This document shows, one piece after another, positions 8,501-61,526 of a DNA stretch of 64,000 nt. This stretch comes from a virus. The position numbers and the translations under genes are program-made. Location: positions 31,046-95,045 of IMG/VR virus record IMGVR_UViG_3300020213_000023; one strand, 5' to 3'. The notes below the pieces were generated by a model. That model was not told the origin of the DNA and did no database searches. It saw only the letters and a list, made by a program, of their open reading frames with translations. The number at the start of each line of letters is the position of its first letter. Within the stretch, counting starts at the first letter, position 1.

Positions 8501-9043
8501 CTCAACCAGTCGATTAACTATCAAATGTCCGTGTTGGTTGCCTCGAACGAGGTGAACGCGAAGACCCACGTCATTCATAACCTCGCAGGGGACCGGGAAA
8601 TCATTCCGTTGCCGTCTGCGGAGGGCGCGTTTCAAGATTACGACGTCGCCATGCGCTACAACTGGCGCCCGATCTGCACCCTCGATGAATACATCATGTT
8701 CCATGACTCCGTGGGAGAAGGTCCGGTCCCTGCGAGTAACCATCCCCGATCGGTTGGCGCGATGTACTATGATCGTATCCGTCGGATGACGCCCGTACCC
8801 GCGGACTTCAAGTTCCCTGCAGGGGCCGACGGTCTCAACGCTGCCGTGGTTGCCGCTACACCAGAACAAATCGCAGCAGGGGAGGCGCCGGCACACGCGA
8901 CGGCCATCCCAGGCCTCAAGAGTGGCACCGGCCCTCATGGAACCAACGCACCGGGTGACTTCCCTCAAGTAAGAGACGACTGGGATAAAATCCTCTTGGC
9001 GTACAGAAATAATGTTTACCACGTGAAAGTACCGCGAACATGA
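5501..9043 (+). CDS. Baseplate hub protein with inserted lytic transglycosylase (SLT/lysozyme-like) domain
   Basis: Hub-like ends (VYINGLEVP; FNPYVVPGFP); internal WIQHES, RGYFQV, AGVALILYY and LFHGG motifs between Pro/Thr/Ala linkers. Confidence 0.7.
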   Translation: MSKPQSGALFSTNDAHSGAFIVYINGLEVPCKSVSHRYGVWQTPEMVLEMVADPVLTRIGAEDRVQVQVFYLDDTKVDPSVSPQFRVFGEGEITGWGYQNTPSGRSIMLTCVNQVAIFTQLFVQFMTNLDDMVAHASDPSAGANAIAVASSNIVYPYALFSEGIVPGEATGQIKRPFDLLYNVIRNMIGSHVSSTTRATPVANFFARWSRLTNFHNRFAAMPFFDEVIDNNIFPVLKALQNTAAVDVLCKSLLPQVQNSGSFWDMLQLVYQTVFMEITMIPTMPLVTVDLRSGHILQTNFDKHKLTMVDGTYVAAAAPDPLKPHRIPNYFAKPQMLFGIPPTCNVIFPSQLKMFAYDENFATQPTRLYFNDETVSKILKIQQGGYGETVMNSLATAYPPEADAANQARLRFPAFNGKSFLLFPEEFFKGPVMDRRNIPPWLFFLKQNEVLNDPSSSDGTTTTPPPPAQTGAATVTSAPITSATAMLTDTRVGTIGKDGKRVFSTNVESLRTDVTRLTRGNTIPVDFALAWIQHESDGTLKTTTSRNQRGYFQVTGPHERGDGTIVKFADSEAAAIGLTEAHTGSGQDSPLLGEEHPLLSTNHEESLQAGVALILYYRKQADTLANTNSLDWSEGDMWRLTKLFHGGAGYAASFIEKAVAANAVDSWANAFTAVTHTLEAPFKKVVDTATGVGSVVPTASGTTLDANSEAIRQAAATPPPATPADVTAPSDGTTSATVAAGTASEADLFEQAREGQQTVYQLYAKYEFFRERYSRRTGSVVLAFNPYVVPGFPAAIFDRRDTRVDVFCYVTTVQQRMSHRGGKETTLSFVYGRTIQEMFDLMRLEFSQGGAAAGTGPREPIRDIRKVVQSFSSSETLYQRLFYGNQILFGKDASFDYRKVIGYQPDVPSDMPDRIVIEGPDEASQDSAERAKEVIAALEASKQAAELRVAVYTQAQRDAQAALSVYEAQAGTALETARDAAQKQFEISTVNLNVVKAELASLNQSINYQMSVLVASNEVNAKTHVIHNLAGDREIIPLPSAEGAFQDYDVAMRYNWRPICTLDEYIMFHDSVGEGPVPASNHPRSVGAMYYDRIRRMTPVPADFKFPAGADGLNAAVVAATPEQIAAGEAPAHATAIPGLKSGTGPHGTNAPGDFPQVRDDWDKILLAYRNNVYHVKVPRT

Positions 9044-9795
9044 GCGTCCTCAAAAACGTCGCCAAGCTCGCGTTTGCTGCCGCAGGCACACGACAAGAGC
9101 AAGACCTTGCACTATGGCGGAAGTGGAAACAGGCCCCGACGGATGCCAACGCGTCCGCGCTGCTCAAATCCATCGACCCGCTAATTCAACGAGAAACGAA
9201 CAAGTGGTCAGGTTCGTTGGCGCGCCCGCTCCTGGAAACGGAAGGTAAGCGTCTCGCTATGGAGGCGTTCCATAGCTACGACCCGAATCGGGGGGCTGCA
9301 CTCGGCACGCACGTCGTCAACCAGCTCCAACGGATGTCTCGGCTGTCCTACGCCAACCAAAATGCGGCACGGCTACCTGAAAACAAGATGCTCCAGTTCC
9401 ATGCGTTCACGATGGGGCACGCAACGTTGCAAGACGAGCTTGGACGTGCTCCCACGTCTGACGAATTGTCAGACCATCTCGGTTGGTCCAACAAACACTT
9501 GACCAAGTTCCGCACAGAGATTGGACACCAAGAACTGCTCGAGTCCGGCGGTATCGAAGGGTCTTCGGCCGGAACGTTCACAGCAGAGGAGTCCGACCAC
9601 ACCGTCGACTTCATACACCACGACCTGTCCCCCAGACAGAAAGCGATCTTCGAACACCTCACGGGGTATGGGGGCGCCGAAATTCTTTCACATCGACAGA
9701 TCCAGAAAAAACTGAGTATCACCCAAGGGCAGTATAGTTACGACAAAGCTAAACTGATCACACACGTTGGAAACGTAACCACGAGGAAGTCGTAA
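9040..9795 (+). CDS. Sigma-70 family (FliA/SigB-like) sigma factor
   Basis: Region 2 AFHSYDPNRGAALGTHV, region 3 LQDELGRAPTSDELSDHLG, region 4 LSPRQKAIF..SHRQIQKKL. Confidence 0.75.
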   Translation: MSVLKNVAKLAFAAAGTRQEQDLALWRKWKQAPTDANASALLKSIDPLIQRETNKWSGSLARPLLETEGKRLAMEAFHSYDPNRGAALGTHVVNQLQRMSRLSYANQNAARLPENKMLQFHAFTMGHATLQDELGRAPTSDELSDHLGWSNKHLTKFRTEIGHQELLESGGIEGSSAGTFTAEESDHTVDFIHHDLSPRQKAIFEHLTGYGGAEILSHRQIQKKLSITQGQYSYDKAKLITHVGNVTTRKS

Positions 9796-28070: not shown

Positions 28071-28115
28071 GTCTGATTTTCCTTGTGAATTCACGCACCG
28101 CGAAAGGCGTTGCGT

Positions 28116-34282: not shown

Positions 34283-37199
34283 GCGTGTACAGCAGCGTCT
34301 CGTCTGGGGTCAGTTGCTTGAGCCCTGTTTTTTCAATGTAAGCTGCAATCGACATCTGCTCGCCGTAACTCGGGCCGACGCTGATATCACACGCGAACGA
34401 AACAGGGAGCCAGGGGTACTTCTCTGCGACTCGCTTGACGCAATAGTAATCCAAAAAGGCTTCCAGTTCATGCAGATGCTTCTTTTTACACGTCGCCACG
34501 ATTGAGTCGTGGACCGTGATAAGCAGGCGCCCGCCCATCTTGTGGATGTGTTCATCCAGTTCCACGAGCTGACCCAGCACGATGTCCGAAGACGTCGACT
34601 GGATCTTCATGTTCTTGCCGCGGCGCTCCGCTTGGCCGCGGAAGAAGCCGTTGACGCCCTGGAGCGGGAACCGACGGCGACGGTAGAACAACGTCTCGAC
34701 AAATCCCGTCATGTGGATCTGGGCGACCGTCGCGTCCATGTATCCCTTGAGCGACGGGAACCGGATGAACAGCTTGTCGATGACGTTCTGCGCTTCTTCT
34801 TCCGAGATGCCGGCGGTCTCGGCGATCTTCTTCGCCATGGCGCCGTAGAGGATGCCGAACACGACGCGCTTCACCGTCGTACGCAGCGCTTTCATCTTCT
34901 TGTCGGACTCCTTCTTGAGTTCGACCTCGTCGTACGGAATCCCGAAGATTTCCTGTGTGAACCAGCTGTGGACATCGAGACCTGCGTTGAGCGCCTCGAT
35001 CAACTGCGGGTCAGGCGCGTACGCCGTGAAGACACGGATCTCGGCACCTTTGTAGTCAAGGTTGACGATGACCTCTTCTTCACTGTCGTCGGGGATGAAG
35101 ATCTTTTTGATGTTGAACCCCGCCAACCACGGCGGGAGGTTCTGCATGTTCAGGTTGTTAGACGAGAGGCGGCCGGTCGACGTTCCGTGGAGATGGAAGT
35201 TCGTATGCAGCATGCCGTCGTACTCGGCAAGCAGCTTGATATCGTGTACGAACCCCGAGAGCGCCTTGTGTGCCGAACGGTACTCGAGCAACGTCTTGGT
35301 GAAGAGGCACCCGGTCTTTTCGGCAATCGCGCGCAGTGTTTTTTTGTCCGTCTTCCACTGCTCTGACTTCTTGTTTTGTTCGACCCACGGTCCCAATCGT
35401 GTTTCGGGATACCCAAGCTCTCCTGGTCGTCTTGGGTTAGGTGCGTCAGGGTTCCAAATTCCAGATACGTAAAGAACGTGCGCCACGTGTTGTGTGGAGT
35501 TGGGGTTGAACTCTTCATCGCGACGTTTGTTCGACGACACGTCCCAGAAGGACCGTAGAAACGAACCCTTCTCAGCGACGACCTTCGATAGCTCGGTCTC
35601 GAGAAACTCGAGGTAGGGCTTGTCAACCCTCATGCCCTTGAACTCCATCAACCCGAGCGAACGTGACCCAGGTACACAATGCGAGTTCATTAGGTTTTTG
35701 GCGGACATGAAGTTTTCAGACTTCATACGCATGAACTGGTTGCGTAGCAGCCGTCGAGTTAAGTCGGTATCGATAGCGGCGTATTGGAGCAAGATGTCGA
35801 TGTCGACGCGCTCGTAGCCTGAATCGAATGTTTGTTTCTTTCGATCTTTCTTCGCCCCGAACAGGTACTTCTCGAGATCGGCCTTACCCATCTCCGCGAC
35901 CATGCCCTCGTCGAACCCTTCCGTACCTTTCTTGATTTTTCCCTTCTTGCAGCCTGCAACCACCGAGTGGACGCTTTCCTCCTCGATTGTCAACGTTGTC
36001 GCGAGTTCATGGACCTTATCGGCGTAGTTCGCGAATTGAGGAAAGTAGCTACGTCCCAAGATCTTTAGGGAGTACGCGCCTGTCATGTCCTCACGCAGGA
36101 GATGCTCGCCGAGCATGGTATCCCACATGACGTTGTGAACTCTGAAACCATGCCGCAGCTCAAGGAACTTGAGATCGAACTTCGCGTTGTGAAAAACCTT
36201 AGGCTTGGGACAGGCGAGCACGCGTTGGACATGCGCGATAACCTGTTCGAGTTCTTCCGGAGTCCAAGGCGAGTCCTTGTGGTACAGGGGGATCGCTGTC
36301 GATCTGCCTATATCCCACGCGAACGAGATGCAGAGAACCTTGGCGTCTTCGCGGTGTGGGTTGACTGTATTGGTCTCAGTATCCACCGCGAGCGCGCACT
36401 GAGAGGCTTTGGCGCCCTCCGGTGCATCCTTCGTGACGTAGTCGATGATGAGGTCGCAGATGTCCTTGACCTCCTCGACCGTCCTGGGGATTTGGTACTC
36501 TTTCGTCAGTTCTTCGATCGTAATGTTGGACGCAGCGTCATCGATGCCAGCAGCGATGCGTACTGCCCGAACGAAGTCGTTGTAGAACAGGTTAAATAGG
36601 CCGGTCTTGGCCATCAAGTGTTTCGTCGAGAACGACGGAATGACCTTTACGTGGTGACCCGCGATCTCCATATCAAGAAGGCGCCCACGCGCCTCCATGA
36701 ACTTTTCGCCTTTGTAGCCGAGCGCCTTGAGAGCATTCGACCCCATCACCATGATGACTTTCGGGCGCTTGTTCTTGATAGCGCTCCGCAAGTACACCGA
36801 GCAACGGTCGATGACGGCCTTGGGCAACGTCGCAGATTGGTCCCGTCCTTCCTCGACCTGACACTGGACTGCGTAAGTATCCCACTTGCGCATGTTCTTC
36901 ATGCGCAGCTGACCTCCCGACTTCTCGTCGAGAATTCTCAGGTCTTTCCAGGTCTGGCGGATGATTCGACCTCCGCGTCCGTAGAACACTTCCTTGTTGT
37001 TCACGGACCAGGAGGACGGGGACTCGGACACGAACATGATGTCGACTTCGCCGGGAGCGCCCGCGCCCGCGACACGTCCCTTGCGCTCCAGCGCACAACC
37101 TGCGCAGGCCATTCCCTTCTGTCCCGCGATCTGGCAGTCCGGCGAGAAGGCCTCGTCGTTTACGTCGAACAACGGCAGCTGTACTTTTTTGCCTGCCAT
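34200..37199 (-). CDS. polA: Family A DNA polymerase with N-terminal UDG-like domain and 3'-5' exonuclease
   Basis: DTET, HNAKFD, YAAID; TGRLSS, NMQN, DYKGAEIR, KRVVFGILYG, VHDS; N-terminal UDG family 4-like fold. Confidence 0.93.
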   Translation of the reverse strand: MAGKKVQLPLFDVNDEAFSPDCQIAGQKGMACAGCALERKGRVAGAGAPGEVDIMFVSESPSSWSVNNKEVFYGRGGRIIRQTWKDLRILDEKSGGQLRMKNMRKWDTYAVQCQVEEGRDQSATLPKAVIDRCSVYLRSAIKNKRPKVIMVMGSNALKALGYKGEKFMEARGRLLDMEIAGHHVKVIPSFSTKHLMAKTGLFNLFYNDFVRAVRIAAGIDDAASNITIEELTKEYQIPRTVEEVKDICDLIIDYVTKDAPEGAKASQCALAVDTETNTVNPHREDAKVLCISFAWDIGRSTAIPLYHKDSPWTPEELEQVIAHVQRVLACPKPKVFHNAKFDLKFLELRHGFRVHNVMWDTMLGEHLLREDMTGAYSLKILGRSYFPQFANYADKVHELATTLTIEEESVHSVVAGCKKGKIKKGTEGFDEGMVAEMGKADLEKYLFGAKKDRKKQTFDSGYERVDIDILLQYAAIDTDLTRRLLRNQFMRMKSENFMSAKNLMNSHCVPGSRSLGLMEFKGMRVDKPYLEFLETELSKVVAEKGSFLRSFWDVSSNKRRDEEFNPNSTQHVAHVLYVSGIWNPDAPNPRRPGELGYPETRLGPWVEQNKKSEQWKTDKKTLRAIAEKTGCLFTKTLLEYRSAHKALSGFVHDIKLLAEYDGMLHTNFHLHGTSTGRLSSNNLNMQNLPPWLAGFNIKKIFIPDDSEEEVIVNLDYKGAEIRVFTAYAPDPQLIEALNAGLDVHSWFTQEIFGIPYDEVELKKESDKKMKALRTTVKRVVFGILYGAMAKKIAETAGISEEEAQNVIDKLFIRFPSLKGYMDATVAQIHMTGFVETLFYRRRRFPLQGVNGFFRGQAERRGKNMKIQSTSSDIVLGQLVELDEHIHKMGGRLLITVHDSIVATCKKKHLHELEAFLDYYCVKRVAEKYPWLPVSFACDISVGPSYGEQMSIAAYIEKTGLKQLTPDETLLYTLDEEAINELREDEDEIKEREAVAAAVG

Positions 37200-42748: not shown

Positions 42749-42964
42749 TGGAAATCTCCCTAGCCTGTGGAACAACGGTTGCCGTTGGGGTTGTCCGCTA
42801 TCGAATCCTCCCCCTGAGGAATCAGACAGTTCGTTCGATTAGCGGAAGTAGACTCTACTGTTATGTATTTCATCCGGGCAAGCTCTTTTGCTTACGAACT
42901 CATGGAAAGGCCGCGTAAAGAAAAGTTGCTGTCCCCATACAGACTGTTACGGTGGTGGGACCGT

Positions 42965-43759
42965 ATGTCACAGGGACTTAGCCGAAGCGCGTCCGCATAC
43001 TTCAACGAAATCTCCAAGGTGTCGCCCATCAGCGATCCTCAGGAGGAACGCCGCCTGATCCTGCGGTGGCAGAAGCACAAGGACGTAAAGGCTAGGGACA
43101 CTCTTGTCCAAAGCCATCTACGCTTTGTCATCACGGTTGCTCGGAAACGTTGCCGCGACGCGGACCGACTACAGGACCTCATCGCGGCAGGAAACATCGG
43201 GCTGATCAAAGCCGTCGACCGTTACGACCTGTCCCGTCGCCCTGCCCCGCGTTTCCTCACGTACGCCGGATGGTGGATTCAGAAAGAGATTGCGGACGAG
43301 GACTACGCGACCACCACCGTCGTACATGTCCCGACGCACCGGCAGAAGGCGCAGCGCAAGGCTGCCAAGCTCTTCCAGAAGGCTGTACAAGCCCACGGCC
43401 CCGAAGCACGTCAACTCAAGAAGATGGACCCAGGGAACCCAGAAGGTCTATCAGTCTCCATCGACGCCGTCCAAGAGACGGTCGAGAGCGAGGGCCCTGA
43501 GGAACCCAACGGCGTCGATGTCGAGCAGGCCAACAAGGTGCTTCGCGTTGCGATCAGTCGACTCCCCGTGCGCGAGCAAACAGTCTTGAACCTGTATTAC
43601 GGCGTAAAGGACGAACCGCGTAACTTCGCACAGATCGCGAACATCCTCGAGATGTGCCCCGAGCGCGTACGCCAAATCAAAATTAACGGCGTGAAGCTGC
43701 TCAAGACAGACCTCACAAACCACCCCCTACTCACTTGGGAACATCATACGTTCCGCTGA
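42965..43759 (+). CDS. Sigma-70 family sigma factor (RpoD/RpoS/RpoH-like)
   Basis: YFNEI, LVQSHLRFVITVA, DLIAAGNIGLIKAVDRYD, RFLTYAGWWI, ERVRQI; start MSQGL preferred. Confidence 0.92.
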   Translation: MSQGLSRSASAYFNEISKVSPISDPQEERRLILRWQKHKDVKARDTLVQSHLRFVITVARKRCRDADRLQDLIAAGNIGLIKAVDRYDLSRRPAPRFLTYAGWWIQKEIADEDYATTTVVHVPTHRQKAQRKAAKLFQKAVQAHGPEARQLKKMDPGNPEGLSVSIDAVQETVESEGPEEPNGVDVEQANKVLRVAISRLPVREQTVLNLYYGVKDEPRNFAQIANILEMCPERVRQIKINGVKLLKTDLTNHPLLTWEHHTFR

Positions 43760-49837: not shown

Positions 49838-51610
49838 ATGTCCCAAAACGATCCCACCCTCGGCGACTTGTACGCACCGTCGAGTTCCCACGGCTCGCCG
49901 TTGTTCGACTTCCTCACGGCGTTCGCGCCTCGGAAGCTCAAGGACCTCTTCAAGCTGTGCGAGTACCTGTACTTCAACAGCTCGCAAATCTACGCGGCGC
50001 TGCAGAAGTTCTGTACGTATCCTGTCACTGACATCACCTACGACACGACCAACGAAGCACTGAAAACAAAATACAAGAACCTCCACGACAAGACGATCAA
50101 AACCAAGAGACGCCTGATTCAGGCGGCCACGGACAAGTTCGTCTACGGAAACGCGTTCTTCTCGATCTACATGCCGTTCGTGCGTTTCCTGCAGTGCAAC
50201 CACTGCAAGCAACTGACGAACATCGCGGCGGTGGACTACAAATTCAAGATCAAGAAACTTGAATTTACGTACAGGTGCGCCGCTTGCGACAAACAGGCCA
50301 CCGGGGACGTACAGGACCGCAAGGTCACCCGTCCTGACAAGGTGGCCATCATTCGGTGGGACCCGAAGCTGATGGACATCGACTACAACCCCATCACACA
50401 ACACAGCGAGTACTACTACACGATCCCGAAGGAATTGAAGGACCGCGTCGTCAAGGGAAACCACCACGTCATCAACACGATGCCGATGGAATTCCTCAAA
50501 GCGATCAAGGAGGACAAGATCTTCAAGTTCTCTGAAGGTCAGATCTTCCATATGAAGATGGATGCGCCTGCAGGCATCGAAGCCCAGTGGGGCTTCCCGC
50601 CGCTGGCATCGACGATCAAATTGTTCTTCTACGCAGCCGTGCTGCGTAAGGCGAACGAAGCCATCGCGCTCGACTACATCGTCCCTCTCCGTATCGTCTC
50701 GCCCAAGGTCGCGTCCAGCAACGCAGACCCGTTGCTCACGATCTCGCTCGATAAGTGGGCGAATGAGATGAAGCACAGCGTCAAGCGTTGGCGGCGCGAC
50801 CCTCTCCACATCATGTGGTCGCCGATTCCTGCAGAGGTCACACACCTAGGAGGGCAGGCGCGTGCACTGATGACCTTGGGTGAAGTGCAAGCGGCTGAGG
50901 ACAACATCATCGCGGCGCTGGGTTTGCCGAAGGAGTTCATCTACGGCGGCTTCTCCGCGATGGGCTCAGGCATCCAGTTGCGTGTTCTTGAGAACCAGCT
51001 GATGCACCAAACCAATGACCTCAACGATTTGCTGCAGTGGATCACTGACAAGTTCGCGAAGCTGCTCGGCTGGCCCTCGGTCAACGTGGAATTGGCGCCG
51101 TTCAAGTTCATCGACGACGTGCAGCAGAAGACCCTGCTGTTGCAGCTCCACATGTCCAATCCCCAAGACCCCATGCTGTCGAAGGGGACGTTGGGCGAAG
51201 CGTTCGATGTCGATCCTGCTGAAGAGCGGAAACGCAAACATCAAGAAGCGTTGGACGACATGAGGGCACAGCAAGAACTGCAACAAGAAATGCAGAAACT
51301 GCAAAATACGCTCGCGCAGCAAATACAGGCCCAACAAGCAATGGGTCAACAGGGGTTGCAGTACGACCAACAACAAATCATCGCGCAAGCGGACACCATG
51401 GTAGAGCAGATGATGGGCATGGACCCTGGAACACGGCGCTCACAAATGCATGCACTCGAGGTCGAGGACTTCGTCATGTTCTCCGTGGTCTCGCGCCGCA
51501 TGGAAAACATGCAGACGGCGCAAAACCACGAAGCAATCACGGCGGCGCGGCAGGGGGGAGACCCAAGCGGAGGTGGTAGCGGCGGCGGTCCTCCTGGGAT
51601 GATGGGTTGA
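49838..51610 (+). CDS. Portal protein
   Basis: IFHMK..WGFPPL and IIAALGLPKEFIYGG portal-like motifs; CxxC..CxxC insertion; Q/M/G-rich tail. Confidence 0.75.
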   Translation: MSQNDPTLGDLYAPSSSHGSPLFDFLTAFAPRKLKDLFKLCEYLYFNSSQIYAALQKFCTYPVTDITYDTTNEALKTKYKNLHDKTIKTKRRLIQAATDKFVYGNAFFSIYMPFVRFLQCNHCKQLTNIAAVDYKFKIKKLEFTYRCAACDKQATGDVQDRKVTRPDKVAIIRWDPKLMDIDYNPITQHSEYYYTIPKELKDRVVKGNHHVINTMPMEFLKAIKEDKIFKFSEGQIFHMKMDAPAGIEAQWGFPPLASTIKLFFYAAVLRKANEAIALDYIVPLRIVSPKVASSNADPLLTISLDKWANEMKHSVKRWRRDPLHIMWSPIPAEVTHLGGQARALMTLGEVQAAEDNIIAALGLPKEFIYGGFSAMGSGIQLRVLENQLMHQTNDLNDLLQWITDKFAKLLGWPSVNVELAPFKFIDDVQQKTLLLQLHMSNPQDPMLSKGTLGEAFDVDPAEERKRKHQEALDDMRAQQELQQEMQKLQNTLAQQIQAQQAMGQQGLQYDQQQIIAQADTMVEQMMGMDPGTRRSQMHALEVEDFVMFSVVSRRMENMQTAQNHEAITAARQGGDPSGGGSGGGPPGMMG

Positions 51611-52051: not shown

Positions 52052-55000
52052 ATGGCAAACACGCCCCTCACGCCTGTAATGGTCGACTCGTTTACGCGAC
52101 GGGTGGAGATTCGTCGCAAGGCGATCGAAGGGCTGATGCAATCCTTCCCGCTCAAGGCCCGGTCGTACACAGTCGAGTTGTTGAATCCACGAGTCGAGGC
52201 ACAGGAGTTCTCGTCCCGAGAACAGAAGGCCGCGATTCTCGAGGGCCGGTCGTTGAACGAGCGCGTCCGCGGCGACCTGATCGTACGTGACGCGCAAGGC
52301 AACATTACGAGCGACGCCAAGGGGTTCACCCTTCTCCACTTGCCGTACTTCACGCCGCGTCACACGTTCATCGTCGACGGCACTGAATACAGTGTTTCCA
52401 ATCAGATCCGCACGAAGCCTGGCGTATACACCCGACGGCGCGGCAACGAGGACCTCGAAGCCTCGTTCAACCTGTCGAAAGGCGGCAACTTCCGTGTCCT
52501 CATGGAACCAGAGAAGGGGCACCTCTTCGTCCAGCCAACGCACTCGACGACACGGATCCCGTTGTACCCCGTCCTACGTGCGCTCGGCGTGCCGCACCAG
52601 GACATCGCAGGGAACTGGGGCAATGAAGTAGCTACGCTGAATCGCGACGCATTCAAGAACCCCGAAAAGCACGTCGACAAGTTCTACGCGAACTTCATCC
52701 ATCCCGCCCAACAGACGCACACGTCGCTCGATGAGAAGGTCCGTGCGCTTCACGGATATCTCGATACGACCGCGATGGACCCGCACGTCAACAAGGTCAC
52801 GCTGGGCCATGGTTACGAAAAGGCGTCACCTCAAGCAATCCTGGCCGCCTCGAAGAAGCTTCTCGACGTCCACCGTGCTGCGGACGACACCGACGATCGA
52901 GACTCTCTAGCGTTTAAGACGTTTCACTCTGTCGACGACTTCATCAAGGAAAGGCTCGCGCTCGATGCGCGGTCGCAACGGATGAAGATGGGCATCAAAC
53001 TGGAAGCCCACAAGGGAGACATCCGAAAGGCGCTACCGTCTGCGCCATTCACACGAACCATCAATTCGTTCCTGACGGGATCGTCGCTGTCCGCAGTGCC
53101 GACGCAGATCAACCCAATGGAACTTATCGATCACGCGGTTCGAGTCACCTCGCTCGGCGAAGGCGCCATCTCGTCCGAACGCGCGATTCCGCTGGAGGCG
53201 CGCAATCTGCACGCGACTCACTTTGGGATCATGGATCCGGTAAGAACCCCGGAGAGCTTCAAAGCGGGCATCGACATTCGCGCAGCTCTGTCTACCCGCC
53301 GGGACACGCAAGGCAACCTCTTCTCGACTTTGCGCAACCTCAAGACAGGGCGCACCGAGCACGTCAAGGCCGAGGACATTATGCACTCGGTCGTGGCGTT
53401 CCCTCACGAGGACGTGCGACCAGGCAAGATGGTGGACGCGCTGACTCGAGGTCACGTGCAGCGTGTTCCCGCTTCGCAGGTGACGCACCAAGTCGTGCAC
53501 GTGTCTGACCTCTACGGACCGACGACGAACCTCCTGCCGTTCCTCAACGGCATGCAGGGCAACCGCTCGTTGATGGCATCCAAGCACCAGAGCCAGGCGC
53601 TGTCCCTGATTCATCGGGAGGCGCCGCTCGTGCAGGTTCAGTCGTGGAAGCCGGGCTCCTCCGTCGAACAGGAGATGAACAAGCTCATCGTCCCGACGTC
53701 ACCGGTGGCAGGGATCGTGTCGCACATCGACGACGACTACATCCACATCACGCCGGACAACCACAAAGCGGCGTCGAGCCCCACTGCCGTCGTCGTGAAG
53801 GGGAACCCACGGTTCATCGAGGGGAACGCAGAAGCCACGCGCTTCTACGATGAGATCAAGAAACATCTTGAATCTGTCGGCTACTCCGTAACGTTCGACG
53901 CGGGAGAGCCCTACACACAACCCGTCAACGCCGACCTTTGGGTTGGACATAGCCGTGGGGCAGACCGTCTTCGTTTCGCGCCCAACACAACTCGAACCGT
54001 CGTACTGGGGAGCCCTCACCCGGATGCAATCAATCACCCGGACGATTCAGTTAACGCCCATTTGACGAATACGCCTCCGTCTATCGCTCACTTCACGTTG
54101 ACGCCAGAAATGAAAAACGCGTTGTCAACGATGCCGAGCAAAGGCGCGTCCGCTCCTTGGGAAGACCCCGGCGACGTCTATTCCGACTTCGTCAAGGTCG
54201 GCGACAACGGCAACATCAAGCTCCACTACGACCAAAACTTCCCGCTAGCGGCCAAGACGTACCTGCACAACGACATCAAGGTGAAAGCGGGTGACCGTGT
54301 TCGCGTGGGTCAGGTTCTCGCAACGTCCAACTTCTCGAAGGACGACACTCTAGCGCTCGGCACCAACCTGAGCGTTGCGTACATGCCGTACCGCGGCCTC
54401 AACACGAACGACGGCATCGTCGTGTCGCAGGGAGCCGCAAACCGTCTCGTCTCCGAGCACATGTACAAGCATGTCATGATCTTGACCGGAGGCGTGGAAG
54501 CGAAGCGCGAGAAGCACCGCGCGTACTTCGGTAACAAGTACACCGCAAAACAGTACGATAACCTCGACGAGGACGGTGTCGTCCGTCCCGGGGCGATCGT
54601 ACAGTCGCACGACCCGCTCATTGTGGCCGTTCGTCCGAATCAAGCCACAGGCAACGCAGTGCTATTGGGCCGCTTGTCCAAGTCGTTGGTCAAGCCGTTC
54701 TCCGAAGAAGTCGAGCTGTGGGACCACGATCGACCAGGCACGGTCATCGACGTGGCCAAGACGGGCGACCGCGTCACAGTCACCGTGAAGACAGAGGAGC
54801 ACCTCAACATCGGCGACAAGCTCTCCGGACGCTACGGCAACAAGGGCGTCATCGCGAAGATTGTCCCTGACCACCAGATGATTCAGGACGAGAAGGGAAA
54901 ACCCATCGATCTGCTCTTTACCTCTGCCGGCATCATCTCGCGTATCAACCCGGCACAGGTCATCGAGGCGTCTCTCGGCAAGGTCGCAGCGCACACAGGT

Positions 55001-56842
55001 AAACCCATCGCGGTCGAGAACTTCGCACCGCACGACAACGTGCAGTACGCGAAGGACATGTTGAAGAAGCACGGACTGTCCGACAAGGAGACCGTCTTCG
55101 ATCCGGTCACCAATCGGTCAATCCCCAAGGTGTTCGTCGGCAAGAGCTACATCCTCAAATTGTTCAAGACCACGGACTCGAACTGGTCAAGTCACGGAGC
55201 GGACCGGTACGACTTCAACCAGCAGCCATCGCGCGGCGGTGACGATGGCGCCAAGGCCATCGGCAAGATGGAATTTGACGGTCTCGTCGCACACAACGCG
55301 CGCAACGTGTTGAAGGAAGCTGCGTCTCTCAAGAGCCAGAAGAACGACGAATTCTGGCGCGCGATTCAGCTTGGCCTTCCGACGCCGACACCGCAGACCC
55401 CGTTCGCCTACAACAAGTTCCTCACGATGCTCGAGGGCGCAGGTGTCAAAGTCTCGAAGAAGGGGTCGCGCCTTTCGCTCGGGCCCCTCACGGACAACGA
55501 CATCGCGAAGATGTCGTCGGGAGCGCTCAAAGAGCCGCACAAGATGATTCGCGCTAAGGACCTGCACCCTGAAACAGGCGGCATGTTTGATCCCGCGACC
55601 ACAGGAGGGATGAGCGGAACGAAGTGGTCGCACGTCGAGCTGCACGAACCGCTCGTCAATCCCGTGTTCGAGGAGCCTGTGCGGCGCCTCCTGGGGCTAA
55701 CCCAGAAAGAGTTCACGGACCTGCACAGCAGGCACGGCGGCGCATGGTTTCGACAGGAGCTGGGACGTATCGACGTCGACTTCCGTTTGAAAGAGTTGCG
55801 TGACCGAAGCCGAACGCTCAAAGGCACTGCCCTTGATGACGTTGTCAAACAGATCAAATACCTCAATGCGTTGCAGGCTCAGAAGCTGTCGCCAGACTTG
55901 GCTTACGTGCTCACCAAGATTCCGGTGACGCCCCCGATCATCAGACCCATCCTCCCCCTCAAGGACGGCCGCCTGCAGGTCGGCGACGCCAACCTCCTCT
56001 ACCGCGACGCCTTCCTCGCCAACGACAAACTTCACGAGGTAAAGGGTGTGTTGCCCGCGAATGAACTGCATGCGCCGCGCAAGCATCTCTACGACGCAAT
56101 CAGTGCCGTATTCGGTGTGGGTGATCCAGTGAGCCCTACCACGGAGAAACGCGAGGCCAAGGGCTACCTCGCGATGATCACGGGTACACGCCCGGGAAGC
56201 GGATTCTTCCAGGGCAAGTTGATGAAGCGACAACAAGACATCTCAGGACGCGCGACCATCGCACCTGACCCGACGTTGTCGATGGACGAGATTGGCGTCC
56301 CGGAAGACATGCTATGGGGCATGTTCGGAAAGTTTGTTATCGGGCGTTTGGTTAAGCGCGGCTACACGGCTCTGGACGCACAGAAGATGGTGGAGGAGAA
56401 AGCGCCGCTCGCCCGACAGGAACTGCTTATCGAGGCGAAGGAACGTCCGGTCATGGTGAACCGTGCACCATCGCTCCATCGCTTCAACATCATCGGAGCC
56501 TTCCCCCGCATCACGACAGGCAAGACGTTGATGCTGAATCCCTTCGCTGAAAAGGGAACGAACGCAGACTACGATGGCGATGCAATGCAGATCCACGCGC
56601 CTGTGACCCCCGGAGCGGTCGAAGACGTCAAGCGGATGACGTTGTCGCACCTGCTATTCAATGACCGGCGCCCCGGCCAGTTGAACGTGGCACCAGACAT
56701 GGAAGCCATCATCGGGCTCCACCGCGCCACAGGGGCCAAGTCCGACAAGGTCACAAAGCACTTCGCTTCGAAGGAGACCGCGTTGGCCGCGTACCACCGC
56801 GGGGAAATTTCCCTGGCGGACACGATCGAGATTGCCAAGTAA
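52052..56842 (+). CDS. rpoB: Phage multisubunit RNA polymerase, beta fused to the N-terminal part of beta'
   Basis: beta motifs FIVDG, DPVRTPE, NRSLMASKHQSQA, GDKLSGRYGNKG, SRIN, IGKME; beta' motifs IPVTPPIIRP, GRATIAP, NRAPSLH, NADYDGD (56561-56581). Confidence 0.95.
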   Translation: MANTPLTPVMVDSFTRRVEIRRKAIEGLMQSFPLKARSYTVELLNPRVEAQEFSSREQKAAILEGRSLNERVRGDLIVRDAQGNITSDAKGFTLLHLPYFTPRHTFIVDGTEYSVSNQIRTKPGVYTRRRGNEDLEASFNLSKGGNFRVLMEPEKGHLFVQPTHSTTRIPLYPVLRALGVPHQDIAGNWGNEVATLNRDAFKNPEKHVDKFYANFIHPAQQTHTSLDEKVRALHGYLDTTAMDPHVNKVTLGHGYEKASPQAILAASKKLLDVHRAADDTDDRDSLAFKTFHSVDDFIKERLALDARSQRMKMGIKLEAHKGDIRKALPSAPFTRTINSFLTGSSLSAVPTQINPMELIDHAVRVTSLGEGAISSERAIPLEARNLHATHFGIMDPVRTPESFKAGIDIRAALSTRRDTQGNLFSTLRNLKTGRTEHVKAEDIMHSVVAFPHEDVRPGKMVDALTRGHVQRVPASQVTHQVVHVSDLYGPTTNLLPFLNGMQGNRSLMASKHQSQALSLIHREAPLVQVQSWKPGSSVEQEMNKLIVPTSPVAGIVSHIDDDYIHITPDNHKAASSPTAVVVKGNPRFIEGNAEATRFYDEIKKHLESVGYSVTFDAGEPYTQPVNADLWVGHSRGADRLRFAPNTTRTVVLGSPHPDAINHPDDSVNAHLTNTPPSIAHFTLTPEMKNALSTMPSKGASAPWEDPGDVYSDFVKVGDNGNIKLHYDQNFPLAAKTYLHNDIKVKAGDRVRVGQVLATSNFSKDDTLALGTNLSVAYMPYRGLNTNDGIVVSQGAANRLVSEHMYKHVMILTGGVEAKREKHRAYFGNKYTAKQYDNLDEDGVVRPGAIVQSHDPLIVAVRPNQATGNAVLLGRLSKSLVKPFSEEVELWDHDRPGTVIDVAKTGDRVTVTVKTEEHLNIGDKLSGRYGNKGVIAKIVPDHQMIQDEKGKPIDLLFTSAGIISRINPAQVIEASLGKVAAHTGKPIAVENFAPHDNVQYAKDMLKKHGLSDKETVFDPVTNRSIPKVFVGKSYILKLFKTTDSNWSSHGADRYDFNQQPSRGGDDGAKAIGKMEFDGLVAHNARNVLKEAASLKSQKNDEFWRAIQLGLPTPTPQTPFAYNKFLTMLEGAGVKVSKKGSRLSLGPLTDNDIAKMSSGALKEPHKMIRAKDLHPETGGMFDPATTGGMSGTKWSHVELHEPLVNPVFEEPVRRLLGLTQKEFTDLHSRHGGAWFRQELGRIDVDFRLKELRDRSRTLKGTALDDVVKQIKYLNALQAQKLSPDLAYVLTKIPVTPPIIRPILPLKDGRLQVGDANLLYRDAFLANDKLHEVKGVLPANELHAPRKHLYDAISAVFGVGDPVSPTTEKREAKGYLAMITGTRPGSGFFQGKLMKRQQDISGRATIAPDPTLSMDEIGVPEDMLWGMFGKFVIGRLVKRGYTALDAQKMVEEKAPLARQELLIEAKERPVMVNRAPSLHRFNIIGAFPRITTGKTLMLNPFAEKGTNADYDGDAMQIHAPVTPGAVEDVKRMTLSHLLFNDRRPGQLNVAPDMEAIIGLHRATGAKSDKVTKHFASKETALAAYHRGEISLADTIEIAK

Positions 56843-56856
56843 ACTCGCGCCGGTTC

Positions 56857-56865
56857 ACCTATAAT
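56857..56865 (+). promoter_or_regulatory. Putative promoter ACC-TATAAT, leaderless
   Basis: Perfect TATAAT at 56860-56865, then 6 nt, then GTG 56872; no SD. Confidence 0.65.
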
Positions 56866-56871
56866 TCCGAC

Positions 56872-57207
56872 GTGAGCACCATCGTGAAAGAGGCCTACGA
56901 CGAGGGCGTCGCAGAGGCGCTCACCAGGTTCGGCCTCAAGGAAGCGGCAAACGAGATCCGCCTCAAAATCCCCAAGCGGGAGTTTCACGGTTTCGACGCA
57001 GCGTTCAAGCCGCGCGTGAAGGCGCTCAAGGAAGCCAACAGCGAGCCACTCGAACCGCAGGCATCGCCAGAGCAGCCTGCGGAGATGCTCGCGGACATAT
57101 TGCAGACGTTAAGCCTGCCAGCACCTCCAGGGGAGCAAAAACATACGGCGGTTGACCGCCCTGTTTTCTGGGGCAGCCCCACGGACGCAAGTAAAGGAGC
57201 CGTTTAA
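56872..57207 (+). CDS. Putative head-internal protein with shared N-terminal leader
   Basis: KEAYDEGVAEALTRFGLKEAA. Confidence 0.7.
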   Translation: MSTIVKEAYDEGVAEALTRFGLKEAANEIRLKIPKREFHGFDAAFKPRVKALKEANSEPLEPQASPEQPAEMLADILQTLSLPAPPGEQKHTAVDRPVFWGSPTDASKGAV

Positions 57208-57599
57208 TGCTTACCAAGGCCGCAACAGAAGGTGCTCTTGCCGCGTGCGATCGGTTCGGTGTCGACGCAGAGAAGCTCGCCGCTGTGGCTCCCACGAGCT
57301 TCTTGTCCTCGGTAATCCCGCGGGCAAAGGCATTCGGGCAAAGCCAGTGGGGCGCCGCGAAGTCTCTCGTCAACAACGCACGTGGCGGACTTGGTGGACG
57401 GCTCAGCCCTGACTTCAAGGGAAGCTTGGACCCAAGCCACCTTGAACTGGGGCGCGCGGCACACCGCTCTCAGGCAGTAGGGAACCTCAAGACCCTCGCG
57501 CCTACGCTGGCCGGCGTGGGCGGTCTCGGCCTGCTCAATCACATGAGCAACAAGAAGAAGGAGCAAGCACAGCTCCAACAGCCGCAAGGACGTTTCTAA
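57207..57599 (+). CDS. Putative head-internal / ejection protein with shared leader
   Basis: AAGGAG SD; KAATEGALAACDRFGVDAEKLAA; Gly-rich hydrophobic C-terminal helix. Confidence 0.7.
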   Translation: MLTKAATEGALAACDRFGVDAEKLAAVAPTSFLSSVIPRAKAFGQSQWGAAKSLVNNARGGLGGRLSPDFKGSLDPSHLELGRAAHRSQAVGNLKTLAPTLAGVGGLGLLNHMSNKKKEQAQLQQPQGRF

Positions 57600-57606
57600 A
57601 AAATCC

Positions 57607-59403
57607 GTGGCGACTCTCGGCGAACACATGGTTGACGCGATCCTACCCGCGGAGTATCGCGGCCGTGGAACGCTCACGAAGCAGCGCCTCAACGAGATCC
57701 TCGTCGATATCGCGAAGAAACACCCCGACAAATATCCGGACATCGTCACCAAGCTCAAGCGGCTCGGCGACGAATGCGCGACACTTGAGGGCATTTCCGT
57801 AGGGCTCGACGACATCGCGCCGCACTACGAAACACGCGATGCGATCGTTTCGCCGTTCCACGCGCAGTTCAACAAAGCGCAACCGCATGAACGGGAGAAG
57901 ATTCTCCTCGACGCACAGAACGCGGTCCTCGGCCACACCAAGAACAACTCCGGCACGATGGGTGAGATGGTGCGGTCGGGCGGTCGCGGCAACGCTGCGC
58001 AGCTCATGCGCATCATTGGTGCGCCTATCCTCGCGCGAGACGAACGTGATCGTATCGTCCCGTGGTTCATTCCCCGTTCTTACGCCGAAGGGTTGAAGCC
58101 GTCCGACGCGTGGGTCGCCGGCAACGAAGCGCGTATAAACGCGATCAAGTCGAACATCTCCGTCGTCGAACCGGGTGACCTCGCCAAGATCCTCGTCAAC
58201 AACATGGGCGACAAGCTCATCTCGATGCCTGACTGCAAGACGTCCAACGGCGTCGCCATGAGCGCACGGGATGCACACGCGGTCGATCGCTATCTCGCAA
58301 AGCCCGTGAATGGCGTTACAGCCGGCACGTTGCTGACCCCCCAGACGCTTCAGCACCTGGGCGAGGCGATGCTCATCGTTCGATCGCCTATGACGTGTGA
58401 AGCACCGCACGGCATCTGCCAGCGCTGCCAAGGCTTGTCATCGACCGGACACGTACACTCTATCGGCACGAACGTTGGCATGCGTGCGGCGCAGGCATTG
58501 TCCGAACCTCTTACCCAGTTTTCACTCAATGCCAAACACGGCGGGCGTATCACGACCACCGACGACCACGTGAAGCGACCCGAAGGTATCAAGGGCGTGC
58601 GCCAGGTCCTCGAGGTCCCCGAGTCGTTTCTCCACAAAGCGACACTCGCGGACCACGCGGGAACAGTGGCTCGCATAGAGCCCGCACCCCAAGGCGGAAA
58701 CTACGTCTGGGTCGATCAGACCCGTCACTACGTACCGCCGGACCTGCGCGTCACGGTCACCAACGGCAAGCACGTGGAAGCGGGCGATACGCTTTCGAAT
58801 GGCGTGCCCAAACCTGACGAGATCGTGAAGCACAAAGGGCTCGGAGAGGGGCGGCGGTACCTCGTCGATACGCTTCACGACGTCTACAAGAGGTCTGGTG
58901 CGGACATCGACCGACGCCATATCGAAACCCTGGCGCGTTCGGTGCTCAATCACGTGTCGATCGAAGACCCAGGGGAAGACGACGCCCATGGGTTCATCAA
59001 GGGCGATATCGTCAACTACAATCGTTTCTCTGCCGCGTTGGCGTTGCATCAAAAGCAACTGCCTGTCGACGATGCAATCGGCGAAACACTCGCAGCGAAT
59101 ACGCTGCACTTTACGGCGGGAACTCACCTGACAGGTTCCGTGCGCGACACGCTCGTTAAGCACGGGATAAAGACGGTGGCGGTTGCGCAGAACGGGCCTC
59201 GGGCCGTTCCGATCATGCGCGCAGCGTCCCGCACGCCGTTGTTGAATCCAGACTGGATGGCGCGTCTGGGCCACCGATACCTCAAGCAGTCTCTGCTTGA
59301 AGGCGCGTGGCGGGGCGATGTAAGTGATACACACGGACCCCACCCGGTCCCGGCGTACGCTGCGGGAACCGAATTCGGCGAAGGATCGGAAGGGCACTAC
59401 TGA
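57607..59403 (+). CDS. rpoC: Phage RNA polymerase beta' C-terminal subunit
   Basis: GISVGLDD, MVRSGGRG, SYAEGL, DC..RSPMTC..GICQRC zinc site, trigger loop AAQALSEPLTQ..KHGG, RHIE. Confidence 0.92.
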   Translation: MATLGEHMVDAILPAEYRGRGTLTKQRLNEILVDIAKKHPDKYPDIVTKLKRLGDECATLEGISVGLDDIAPHYETRDAIVSPFHAQFNKAQPHEREKILLDAQNAVLGHTKNNSGTMGEMVRSGGRGNAAQLMRIIGAPILARDERDRIVPWFIPRSYAEGLKPSDAWVAGNEARINAIKSNISVVEPGDLAKILVNNMGDKLISMPDCKTSNGVAMSARDAHAVDRYLAKPVNGVTAGTLLTPQTLQHLGEAMLIVRSPMTCEAPHGICQRCQGLSSTGHVHSIGTNVGMRAAQALSEPLTQFSLNAKHGGRITTTDDHVKRPEGIKGVRQVLEVPESFLHKATLADHAGTVARIEPAPQGGNYVWVDQTRHYVPPDLRVTVTNGKHVEAGDTLSNGVPKPDEIVKHKGLGEGRRYLVDTLHDVYKRSGADIDRRHIETLARSVLNHVSIEDPGEDDAHGFIKGDIVNYNRFSAALALHQKQLPVDDAIGETLAANTLHFTAGTHLTGSVRDTLVKHGIKTVAVAQNGPRAVPIMRAASRTPLLNPDWMARLGHRYLKQSLLEGAWRGDVSDTHGPHPVPAYAAGTEFGEGSEGHY

Positions 59404-59954: not shown

Positions 59955-60178
59955 CCCTCAAGAAATCGTATGACGAGGGCGTCAGGACGGCGCTCAATCA
60001 TTTTTGTGTTCGAGATGTAAAAATCGCGAACATGATTAGGGGTGCGGCGGGGTATAACCCAACGCTCAACCCTGCACAGTCTTCGGCAACCGCTATGCCG
60101 TCTGTAATGCCGAAGCCTGCGACACCCCCGACTGCACCGGTCGCAAGTGGCGCTAGTAAGGCAAACGTCCTCGGTTGA
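59951..60178 (+). CDS. Small protein with shared leader
   Basis: KSYDEGVRTALNHFCVRDVKIA; Pro/Ala-rich remainder. Confidence 0.65.
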   Translation: MTLKKSYDEGVRTALNHFCVRDVKIANMIRGAAGYNPTLNPAQSSATAMPSVMPKPATPPTAPVASGASKANVLG

Positions 60179-60198
60179 TTTGTGTAACCGAGGGTTTT

Positions 60199-60208
60199 GG
60201 CCTACCAT
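60199..60208 (+). promoter_or_regulatory. Putative promoter GGCC-TACCAT
   Basis: Matches the CC-TAnnnT motif; intergenic, upstream of GAGGAG SD and ATG 60255. Confidence 0.5.
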
Positions 60209-60254
60209 TTTGCAGCTAAACAACCGCTTTCAGACGACTCGAGGAGACGACAAC

Positions 60255-61526
60255 ATGTTCAAGAACGCATACGTTCGAGGCGTCACAAACGCGCTGATCC
60301 AAAGCGGTCATGTTGCGTTTCCCGACGAGGATTCCGCGGCCAAGATCGCGGACTTCATTGGCGATCGTGCGGATTTCGATCCGCACAACATGACACGCGA
60401 AGTCGCGTTGAAGATCGCCAACGCCGTCATCGAAGCATCGGAACACCTCGTCGCGAAGGGCTACAAGGCCGCCGCGGTCACGATGAAGGTTGCTTCCGTC
60501 GAGGACCTCGGCAAGCTCGCCCATGCCCACGTCATCCACTTGATGGAGAAGGCCGCTGAAGGCTCGACCATCGAGGGCGGTGACAAGGGCAACGCGGAGT
60601 CGAACTCCGCTGAGGGCAAGATGGACGCGTCGCAGCGTCCGCCTGGCTACGCCGAGAACTCGCTCGGCAGCTCTGCCGTCGATACCCGCCCGGGTGCCGT
60701 AGGCAAGGAGCAGCCGCAACCCAACGCGCCGTCGGAGTCGCCGTCAGGGTCGAACTCGATCACGGATGCCTCGAAGGCGGCCTCGCTCGGCGCGCTGATC
60801 AAGAAGGTCGCTGAAGGCACGACGATCCTGGGCGGCGACAAGGGCAACACGGAGCCGACCACAGCAGAGGGCAAGATGGACGCAGCGATGCGTCCGCCCG
60901 GCTACGCCGTCCTGCCCGGCCAGGGCGACCTCGGCGAGCTGATGAACCAGGTCAGCAGCAACGCGGTTGTTGGCCGCGAGACCCCGCATCCGAACGCGCC
61001 CTCCGAGTCGCCGTCGGGTTCGAACTCGCTCACAGAGCACTCGTCCAAGGCGGCAGCCGAGGACCCGTTCGTCGCTGTCTTCAAGAATACCGCGACCGAG
61101 ATCGTTCGGTACCTCCCGGCCTCTCTGGATGACTACGCGAAGATCGCCCACGTTCGTGCCTGTATGGGCCTGTCGATGAACGAGAAGGCGCACTATCTCG
61201 TCGGCCTCCAAAAGGAGGCAGCGGACAAGACCGCGGCGAAGGCGCGGGCTGCCGCACCGTCCTACCAAGGCTACGACGGCCGTAACGCGAACCAGCGCAA
61301 GGTCGCGGAGATGCCGGCATTCATCCAAGAGAAGATCGACGCCCGGAAGGAAGAGGGCGGCGAGAAGAAGGACGATGACAAGGCGTCCGGCGGCTTCCCG
61401 TTCGCCAAGAAGGATGACGAGAAGAAGGACGAGAAGAGCGAGGACAAGAAGGACGAGGACAAGAAGGAAGCGTCCCTCGCTGCTCACTTCCGTCGTATCT
61501 CGGCCTCGATCAACTCGGCTGCGTAA
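60255..61526 (+). CDS. Putative head scaffold / core protein with internal duplication
   Basis: GAGGAG SD; leader KNAYVRGVTNAL; two ~80-aa repeats; more than 10 KxA sites; K/D/E-rich tail. Confidence 0.7.
   Translation: MFKNAYVRGVTNALIQSGHVAFPDEDSAAKIADFIGDRADFDPHNMTREVALKIANAVIEASEHLVAKGYKAAAVTMKVASVEDLGKLAHAHVIHLMEKAAEGSTIEGGDKGNAESNSAEGKMDASQRPPGYAENSLGSSAVDTRPGAVGKEQPQPNAPSESPSGSNSITDASKAASLGALIKKVAEGTTILGGDKGNTEPTTAEGKMDAAMRPPGYAVLPGQGDLGELMNQVSSNAVVGRETPHPNAPSESPSGSNSLTEHSSKAAAEDPFVAVFKNTATEIVRYLPASLDDYAKIAHVRACMGLSMNEKAHYLVGLQKEAADKTAAKARAAAPSYQGYDGRNANQRKVAEMPAFIQEKIDARKEEGGEKKDDDKASGGFPFAKKDDEKKDEKSEDKKDEDKKEASLAAHFRRISASINSAA
60549..61055 (+). repeat. Diverged direct repeat (60549-60782 and 60804-61055)
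   Basis: K(A/V)AEG(S/T)TIxGGDKGN..AEGKMDA..RPPGYA..VG.E.P.PNAPSESPSGSNS.T..SKAA occurs twice. Confidence 0.9.

Follow-up and report, generated by a model that had tools for sequence, protein, structure and literature searches.

The window analysed here, a stretch of 64,000 nucleotides (nt) that forms the final 64 kb of the 95,045-bp viral contig IMGVR_UViG_3300020213_000023 in the IMG/VR database, encodes a multisubunit RNA polymerase with rearranged subunit boundaries: the complete beta subunit is fused in frame to the N-terminal third of beta-prime, and the remainder of beta-prime is encoded by a separate gene downstream. Comparison of the sequences with those of cultured phages and metagenomic relatives indicates that this architecture is genuine, conserved and so far undescribed as such, and that the window is a further member of a large lineage. 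Taking the different lines of evidence together, we regard it as likely that the two genes provide the only RNA polymerase of the phage, an enzyme of reduced bacterial type with a two-chain core free of alpha and omega, which is directed by sigma factors and packaged in the virion.

The fused beta/beta-prime gene

The fused gene and its features are located as follows (aa, amino acids):

52052..56842, + strand: fused gene of 1596 aa, whole beta (aa 1 to ~1135) in frame with the N-terminal third of beta-prime (aa ~1136-1596), containing both double-psi barrels
53768..54172, + strand: lineage-specific 135-aa insert in beta (aa ~573-707), a hot-spot at which close relatives have a GNAT domain or no insert
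54812..54847, + strand: catalytic motif of the beta barrel, GDKLSGRYGNKG, aa 921-932 (Pfam Rpb2_6, E 3.7e-46)
55439..55480, + strand: beta/beta-prime junction, ~aa 1130-1143, ...EGAGVKV/SKKGSRL... (MAFFT with E. coli, Arash and D69)
55616..55621, + strand: site of the missing beta-prime zinc-binding domain (E. coli C70-C88), a 32-column gap between G1189 and T1190
56561..56581, + strand: NADYDGD, the Mg-binding loop of the beta-prime barrel, aa 1504-1510 (Pfam Rpb1_2, E 7.3e-21)

The open reading frame (ORF) at 52052-56842 translates into 1596 aa without an internal stop, and a ribosome-binding site (GGGAGAA) lies 7 nt 5' of its ATG. According to Pfam, aa 123-1040 contain Rpb2 domains 2, 3 and 6, and Rpb1 domains 1 and 2 follow at aa 1251-1530. 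In phmmer searches against the PDB, most of residues ~250-1164 match bacterial beta, with E values down to 7e-62, and aa 1220-1592 match residues ~156-560 of bacterial beta-prime. Signatures of the cellular type are present in this one chain for both barrels, namely the lysine motif GDK...GNKG and a motif of the NADFDGD type. A first-pass annotation, made from the sequence of the window alone, had proposed a single chain in which two catalytic barrels with bacteria-like motifs are joined directly, and the Pfam domains, the motif positions, the E values and the alignment agree with it on each of these points.

The junction was located in a MAFFT alignment of the concatenated window chains with RpoB plus RpoC of Escherichia coli and with two cultured relatives, the phages Arash and D69. 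The C-terminus of beta (...AGVKV, corresponding to ...GINIELEDE in E. coli) runs straight into beta-prime residue ~17-20, with a linker of a few residues at most. The N-terminal zinc-binding domain of beta-prime has been lost by a 32-column deletion which leaves no cysteine and is common to Arash, D69 and the consensus of the one-chain relatives described below. The clamp helices and the flap-tip helix are retained in the alignment. Four positions of the rifampicin pocket are substituted, with A, V, T and T standing where E. coli has Q513, F514, D516 and S531, respectively, and H526 and R529 are retained; 513, 516 and 531 among the four substituted sites are classical rifampicin-resistance positions. 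From the substituted pocket, transcription insensitive to the drug is predicted.

The 135-aa insert in beta matches phrog_30942 and has no Pfam match. Its fold predicted in isolation reached a mean predicted local distance difference test score (pLDDT) of 41.5 and is unusable, and the insert is dispensable for explaining the architecture. Its site is a hot-spot for the swapping of domain cassettes: the related proteins P0034 and P0061 contain an insert homologous to that of the window (54% identity), in P0009 (85.5% identical overall) the site is occupied by a GNAT acetyltransferase (Pfam, aa 585-684), and P0007 and P0010 have no insert between flanks that are ~90% identical. In some beta-prime C chains (P0125), a GNAT domain extends the C-terminus instead.

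The second chain and the break in beta-prime

Downstream of the fused gene, the following features were assigned:

56872..57207 and 57207..57599, + strand: two small intervening ORFs of 111 and 130 aa, variable cargo
57607..59403, + strand: separate gene of 598 aa with a GTG start, C-terminal two-thirds of beta-prime (Pfam, PHROG, alignment)
~58111-58212, + strand: bridge helix, ~aa 169-202 of the 598-aa chain
from ~58477, + strand: trigger loop, from ~aa 291 of the 598-aa chain, catalytic His retained, SI3 insertion absent

Pfam and the alignment thus find the bridge helix, the trigger loop and the second zinc site where they had been seen initially, in the 598-aa gene two ORFs downstream. 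The trigger loop is compact, with N as the equivalent of R933, and the second zinc site consists of four cysteines (C210, C264, C271 and C274). The fused gene terminates within a variable hairpin after the catalytic barrel, and the break in beta-prime falls at E. coli residues ~550-565, just 5' of the TTVGR equivalent. At the end of the fused chain, the alignment with the cyanobacterial gamma chain 8syi_D stops at residue 551 of 624; therefore, the phage break lies ~65 residues upstream of the rpoC1/rpoC2 break, in keeping with the initial description of a break near to, and distinct from, this split. A search with the first 108 aa of the second chain for mapping the cyanobacterial boundary gave no cyanobacterial match.

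The two intervening ORFs have no Pfam or PHROG match; in tblastn searches one of them (P0003) matches a single locus (L010) and the other (P0004) none. The gap between the polymerase genes differs in size and content among relatives and ranges from 0.8 to 4.8 kb. The possibility that these ORFs encode hidden analogues of alpha or omega was rejected on the grounds of the missing Pfam and PHROG matches, the near-empty tblastn result and the variable gap content. As a separate observation, many gap genes of the window and of loci L010-L038, P0003 and P0004 included, start with a common motif of ~20 aa (..AY.EG..A...FG(L/V)..A), and seven loci possess a single gene of 480-540 aa between the polymerase genes instead.

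Conservation in cultured and metagenomic phages

A tblastn search of cultured phage genomes identified the fused gene as gp206 (1525 aa) of Salmonella phage Arash and also detected it in the Vibrio phages D69, D148 and D181. In Arash and the Vibrio relatives, a beta-prime C gene of ~606 aa is located downstream and a portal gene upstream of the fused gene; the counterpart of the second chain is gp216 in Arash, and the pair in D69 consists of 0261 and 0264. Junction and break fall into the same alignment columns in the window, Arash and D69, within ~2 positions, and the junction pattern ...G(V/I)xV / ...L(S/A)xxP(L/M)TD is present in the window. The identity between the window and Arash or D69 is 35% for the fused chain and 28-30% for the second chain, and that of the window chains to any bacterial chain is 25-30%.

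The layout is also widespread in metagenomic data. A query covering the junction (aa 1000-1400) gave 598 matches among 5.8 billion proteins, the best 120 of which all cover the junction fully, are mostly 1450-1480 aa long and derive from contigs of up to 197 kb. In IMG/VR, beta and beta-prime N are collinear in one frame in 32 of 34 loci, and the two-gene layout is found in 30 of the 34, with beta-prime C located 0.8-2.4 kb downstream wherever the contig reaches far enough. A full phmmer scan with the 598-aa chain yielded 1140 representative clusters at E <= 1e-30. By these homology searches, the two-chain layout is the standard for a very large, barely studied phage lineage including cultured phages. 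The 'rearranged' layout of the first-pass annotation is hence real, and what has to be given up is the impression of a one-off, as the large lineage in which it is standard even has one-chain relatives.

Since the same junction and the same break occur in cultured phages, in 30 contigs and in more than 100 clusters, they are no assembly error. The initial annotation had itself named a stop or frameshift at the junction, and recent capture from a host, as findings that would speak against it. An explanation of this kind, in which the fused frame is an artefact of misassembly or frameshift, or else a recently captured host rpoBC or bacterial contamination, draws on no more than the general possibility of such errors in metagenome assemblies. 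It conflicts with the conservation of frame and junction in more than 100 independent clusters and four cultured phage genomes, with the complete peptide coverage of Arash gp206 (see below), with the low identity to bacterial chains and the separate clade formed by the phage sequences, and with the flanks of the polymerase genes, which are phage genes (portal, terminase, DNA polymerase). Its probability is negligible in our view.

Apart from the subunit boundaries, in-frame insertions of 0.4-1.5 kb were observed at catalytic motifs of the fused chain of relatives, at TPES/FKAG (aa ~409) and GDKL/SGRYGNKG (aa 925), with further sites at the GFFQ motif (aa ~1380) and at NADYDGD/A (aa 1511). Carriers are L026, L027, L029, L030, L032, L033, L036, L038 and L039 as well as P0092, P0121, P0137 and P0144. 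Some of these insertions contain LAGLIDADG and intein-splicing Pfam domains and are therefore inteins. In the Vibrio phages D148 and D181, the fused gene is interrupted by a homing-endonuclease gene.

One-chain relatives and the probable order of events

The loci L037 and L041 encode beta together with both parts of beta-prime in one continuous ORF (10001-16195 in L037, 2064 aa). Such one-chain forms account for ~17 of the best 150 representative clusters, to which several proteins from a search for longer sequences are to be added, and they comprise 1,993-2,100 aa, or more where inteins are present. Their consensus has the same beta/beta-prime junction as the window. The forms P0231, P0275, P0140 and P0284 run uninterrupted through the break point of the window, and over the beta-prime C region the one-chain forms are 31-38% identical to it. 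When IMG/VR was searched with the L037 protein, the only matches were L037 and one near-identical contig. Because these relatives carry all parts in one ORF, the two chains of the window are, by homology, parts of one enzyme.

A maximum-likelihood tree was calculated for the beta-prime C region with 110 rows and rooted on 11 bacterial-type beta-prime sequences. The phage family forms a clade apart from bacterial-type beta-prime with a support of 100 and is not nested among the sampled bacterial sequences, which argues against recent capture from a host. All two-chain sequences, among them those of the window, Arash and D69, constitute one clade (support 97 with 110 rows and 95 with 44 rows), and the one-chain forms are placed around the base of this clade in the best tree. 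Bacteria and the one-chain phages have an unbroken beta-prime, and both phage groups possess the junction and lack the zinc-binding domain, so the fusion would have preceded the break. We infer from this comparison that the break in beta-prime is derived and occurred once, in the ancestor of the two-chain forms. A point against this order is that monophyly of the one-chain forms was not rejected with the 44-row tree (approximately unbiased test, p = 0.11); the derived state of the break is thus drawn from the outgroup comparison and not from the tree alone. A segment of ~35 aa that ends the fused chain was considered as a marker of polarity and dropped. In a wider alignment several one-chain forms keep this segment and others have deleted it, so that it holds no polarity signal.

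Subunit complement and sigma factors

The first-pass annotation had noted the absence of alpha and omega genes from the window, and this absence extends to the entire 95-kb contig, in which no match to alpha (PF01000, PF01193) or omega (PF01192) was found. The genomes of Arash and D69, both complete (180.8 and 186.7 kb, respectively), also gave no match to any of the three families. In genome G002 (190,250 bp, terminal repeats, 100% complete), PF01193 was the sole family searched and gave no match, and likewise PF01193 had no match in G001. As a control, the families were recovered in 14 of 14 control genomes. Each genome contains one catalytic polymerase set.

Two genes of the sigma-70 family are present in the window:

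42863..43759, + strand: sigma-70-family gene with regions 2 and 4 (Pfam), syntenic with the sigma genes that Arash and D69 carry ~9 kb upstream of their polymerase genes
9040..9795, + strand: divergent sigma-70-family protein, homologue of Arash gp10 (34% identity, E 8e-37)

When the protein encoded at 9040-9795 was used as a profile against the PDB, RpoS and SigA were obtained (52 of 53 matches, best E 1.3e-4, regions 2 to 4), and for its AlphaFold model (pLDDT 75) sigma factors are among the top Foldseek matches with a probability of 1.00. The putative docking sites for sigma on the fused chain, the clamp helices and the flap-tip helix, are conserved alongside these two genes. With two phage-encoded sigma-70-family proteins, the working enzyme probably consists of at least three chains; the 'two-chain enzyme' proposed at the outset holds for the core and is probably too small for the working enzyme. 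As a side observation, the gp10-like sigma shows 62-89% identity over 120 clusters, compared with ~45-55% for the polymerase chains.

The missing alpha and omega genes allow a different reading, in which the two-chain core is not self-sufficient and assembles on the alpha dimer of the host, perhaps also with its omega, and the fusion is a device of genomic economy or stoichiometry. In favour of it, the E values against bacterial beta show the enzyme to be much closer to bacterial RNA polymerase than phiKZ-type enzymes are, and the rpoB-rpoC fusions of Helicobacteraceae and Wolbachia remain part of alpha-containing enzymes. However, the hosts are distant from each other (Salmonella, Vibrio and a GC-rich host) and the phage chains are only ~35% identical, so that a fit to each alpha would be demanding, and an enzyme delivered by the particle would require alpha immediately. 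Moreover, the phage enzymes of the phiKZ and AR9 types function without alpha or omega (PMC7598289). On balance, we consider dependence on host alpha rather unlikely, and a core assembling from the two phage chains remains the preferred reading.

Probable packaging in the virion

The polymerase genes are flanked by a portal gene and other head genes:

49838..51610, + strand: portal-protein homologue directly 5' of the fused polymerase gene, which puts the polymerase genes in the head-gene block

The Arash counterpart at this position, gp204, carries a portal annotation, and a portal gene is kept 5' of the polymerase in 30 of the 34 loci. Mass spectrometry of Arash particles detected gp206 as the most-detected protein, with 3516 spectra and 100% coverage, above the major capsid protein, together with gp216 (1210 spectra) and the sigma-like gp10 (467 spectra) (PMC10585845). 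This corresponds to ~2.3, 2.0 and 2.0 spectra per residue for gp206, gp216 and gp10, respectively, and is compatible with roughly equal amounts of the three proteins, spectral counts being crude. Genes for homologues of these three proteins are present in the window. The Arash data and the conserved position after the portal gene make a virion-carried holoenzyme probably the best reading by analogy. Packaging, guessed in the first-pass annotation from gene position, has in this way gained the support of orthologues, with particle association shown for Arash only.

The same data could be explained by an enzyme made after infection for middle and late transcription only, whose detection in Arash particles would reflect carry-over of an abundant protein. 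The Arash authors themselves caution that abundant intracellular enzymes may contaminate particle preparations (PMC10585845), and ribonucleotide reductases and ligases were also detected in the preparation, which suggests some carry-over. In contrast, carry-over hardly accounts for a polymerase chain exceeding the major capsid protein or for genes that follow the portal gene within the head-gene block in 30 of 34 loci. In addition, a scan for the sigma-70 consensus at 49-62 kb, the 13 kb around the polymerase genes, gave 0 sites versus 3.0 expected; with a single polymerase set and no such promoters in these 13 kb, early genes would need another route to the host enzyme. We therefore judge it improbable that the enzyme acts only late, and favour delivery with the particle.

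Proposed mode of action

Chain 1 (1596 aa) is a beta subunit tethered by its C-terminus to the N-terminus of beta-prime. These two termini meet in the clamp of cellular enzymes, and chain 1 thus comprises both halves of the active centre, the clamp helices for docking of sigma and the flap tip. Chain 2 (598 aa) contributes the bridge helix and trigger loop together with the second zinc site and the C-terminal module. In the proposed explanation, the tether may stand in for the alpha dimer as the assembly platform, in which case the core would form from two chains without alpha or omega, and promoters would be recognised via the phage-encoded sigma-70-family proteins. By analogy with Arash, the core and the gp10-like sigma would be packed in the head, delivered with the DNA and used for transcription of the early genes, and later transcription might be carried out by the same enzyme with the second sigma. 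The break in beta-prime would have occurred in an ancestor whose enzyme was one fused chain, at a surface hairpin located directly past the catalytic barrel.

Several points weigh against this explanation. Packaging is known from Arash, whose fused chain shares 35% of its residues with that of the window, and a head protease may cleave the fused chain. The lack of alpha and omega genes may also be compatible with the use of host subunits, and the Pfam models might miss a very divergent analogue of either. As the contig is ~51% complete (CheckV), the absences in this genome rest on those in its relatives. Furthermore, no repeated promoter-like motif was found among the direct repeats.

Genome context

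Besides the polymerase genes, the window encodes a large terminase subunit, a family-A DNA polymerase, a primase-helicase-like protein, a ParB-like protein, a PD-(D/E)XK nuclease and an SNF2 helicase, and many of its large proteins are without annotation. The terminase and the replication genes identify the virus as a large tailed phage with its own replication genes. In the family-A DNA polymerase (34200-37199, - strand), an N-terminal domain of the UDG superfamily (Pfam UDG, aa 45-203) precedes the exonuclease and polymerase domains. A DUF2201 metallopeptidase/VWA-like protein and an AAA_5 (dynein-related) ATPase are encoded near each other at 26661-28094 and 29835-31085, both on the - strand, just before the terminase gene. 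Repeats were observed in two ORFs of the structural block: the ORF at 60147-61526 contains a tandem duplication, a pair of units of ~255-270 nt at 60541-61043 with 76-83% identity, and the ORF at 96-3854 contains repeat units spaced by 117 nt at 2115-2496. Terminator-like sites were not above background (19 versus 14.5).

Relation to known RNA polymerases and significance

The closest known systems are the cultured phages Arash, D69, D148 and D181, with which the window shares the junction, the loss of the zinc-binding domain, the break, the position after the portal gene, the sigma genes, the lack of alpha and omega and the single polymerase set (the complement being taken from Arash and D69). 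Compared with Arash and D69, the window is distinguished by the 135-aa insert in beta and by the absence of ~45 aa of the beta-prime N-terminal region, and 2 small ORFs lie between its chains instead of the 9 genes found in Arash. The Arash chains are annotated simply as beta and beta-prime, and the rearrangement is undescribed (OQ632216; PMC10585845). The one-chain relatives (L037; P0136, P0231) belong to the same family, with the same junction and the same missing domain, and differ in their continuous beta-prime.

The mReC, the multisubunit-RNAP-encoding Caudovirales of Weinheimer and Aylward (2020), are similar in that they are metagenomic tailed phages and have beta and beta-prime of cellular type that branch apart from the cellular enzymes. 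Separate beta and beta-prime proteins of >= 800 aa each, the latter with NADxDGD, were required in that study; its tables give two different genes per contig, and a fusion is mentioned for crAssphage only (PMC7481178). The mReC beta (~920-1016 aa) and beta-prime (~907-1052 aa) match the modules of the window in size. However, the window would be excluded by such a filter, as its NADYDGD motif and its beta share one protein and its second beta-prime chain has 598 aa.

The enzymes of the phiKZ/AR9 type lack alpha and sigma, consist of 4-5 pieces and exist in two sets, and their beta-prime is broken after the barrel in a manner likened to that of cyanobacteria (PMC7598289, PMC7824862). They resemble the polymerase described here in the absence of alpha and omega, in the split of beta-prime after the catalytic barrel and in the presence of one version in the virion; the PHROG profiles for beta-prime N chains of the phiKZ type stop ~30 aa short of the break of the window. 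In contrast to them, with beta in 2-3 chains, two paralogous sets, no sigma and far greater divergence, the window encodes a whole and fused beta, one set and sigma-70-family genes. Cyanobacterial and plastid rpoC1/rpoC2 likewise show a break in beta-prime after the catalytic barrel; the phage break is shifted upstream as described above, and the phage enzyme has no SI3. Natural beta/beta-prime fusions in Helicobacteraceae and Wolbachia are among the cases cited in PMC7483510. Each half of the rearrangement thus has a cellular precedent, whereas no cellular enzyme is known to combine both. In the literature on the Vibrio phage records, on RpoBC and on follow-ups of mReC, no description of the combined fusion and break was found. 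Public records name the two genes 'beta' and 'beta' or 'hypothetical', and with such labels the lineage escapes searches that expect two long subunits.

The occurrence of one-chain and two-chain forms in one family, besides the separate-subunit forms in the literature, indicates that phages shift the subunit boundaries of the enzyme freely. A break after the barrel is found in cyanobacteria and phiKZ-type phages as well as in the lineage of the window, which bears on the question, raised in PMC7598289, whether the polymerases of jumbo phages derive from cyanobacteria. Cellular RNA polymerases all assemble on an alpha-type platform, and an enzyme with a tethered beta that uses sigma would be a simple natural test of what this platform is for; the one-chain sister forms would be a still simpler system for this question. 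Being compact, the enzyme is in addition a candidate for structural studies and could be expressed as a minimal sigma-dependent polymerase, and the cultured members (Arash on Salmonella Typhimurium, the Vibrio phages) make it experimentally accessible.

A bolder claim can be put forward tentatively, as one that may well fail in one of its parts: that this is the smallest known sigma-70-dependent RNA polymerase of cellular type, that its core assembles by itself from two chains, or from one in the sister phages, without alpha or omega, that it is packed in the head and injected with its own sigma, and that its beta-prime broke independently of the other known breaks. If this were true, a break independent of those in cyanobacteria and phiKZ-type phages would have occurred in nearly the same surface loop, which would then be a recurrent fault line of the enzyme, and the lineage would represent a living intermediate linking bacterial enzymes to the jumbo-phage polymerases, which are fragmented and sigma-less.

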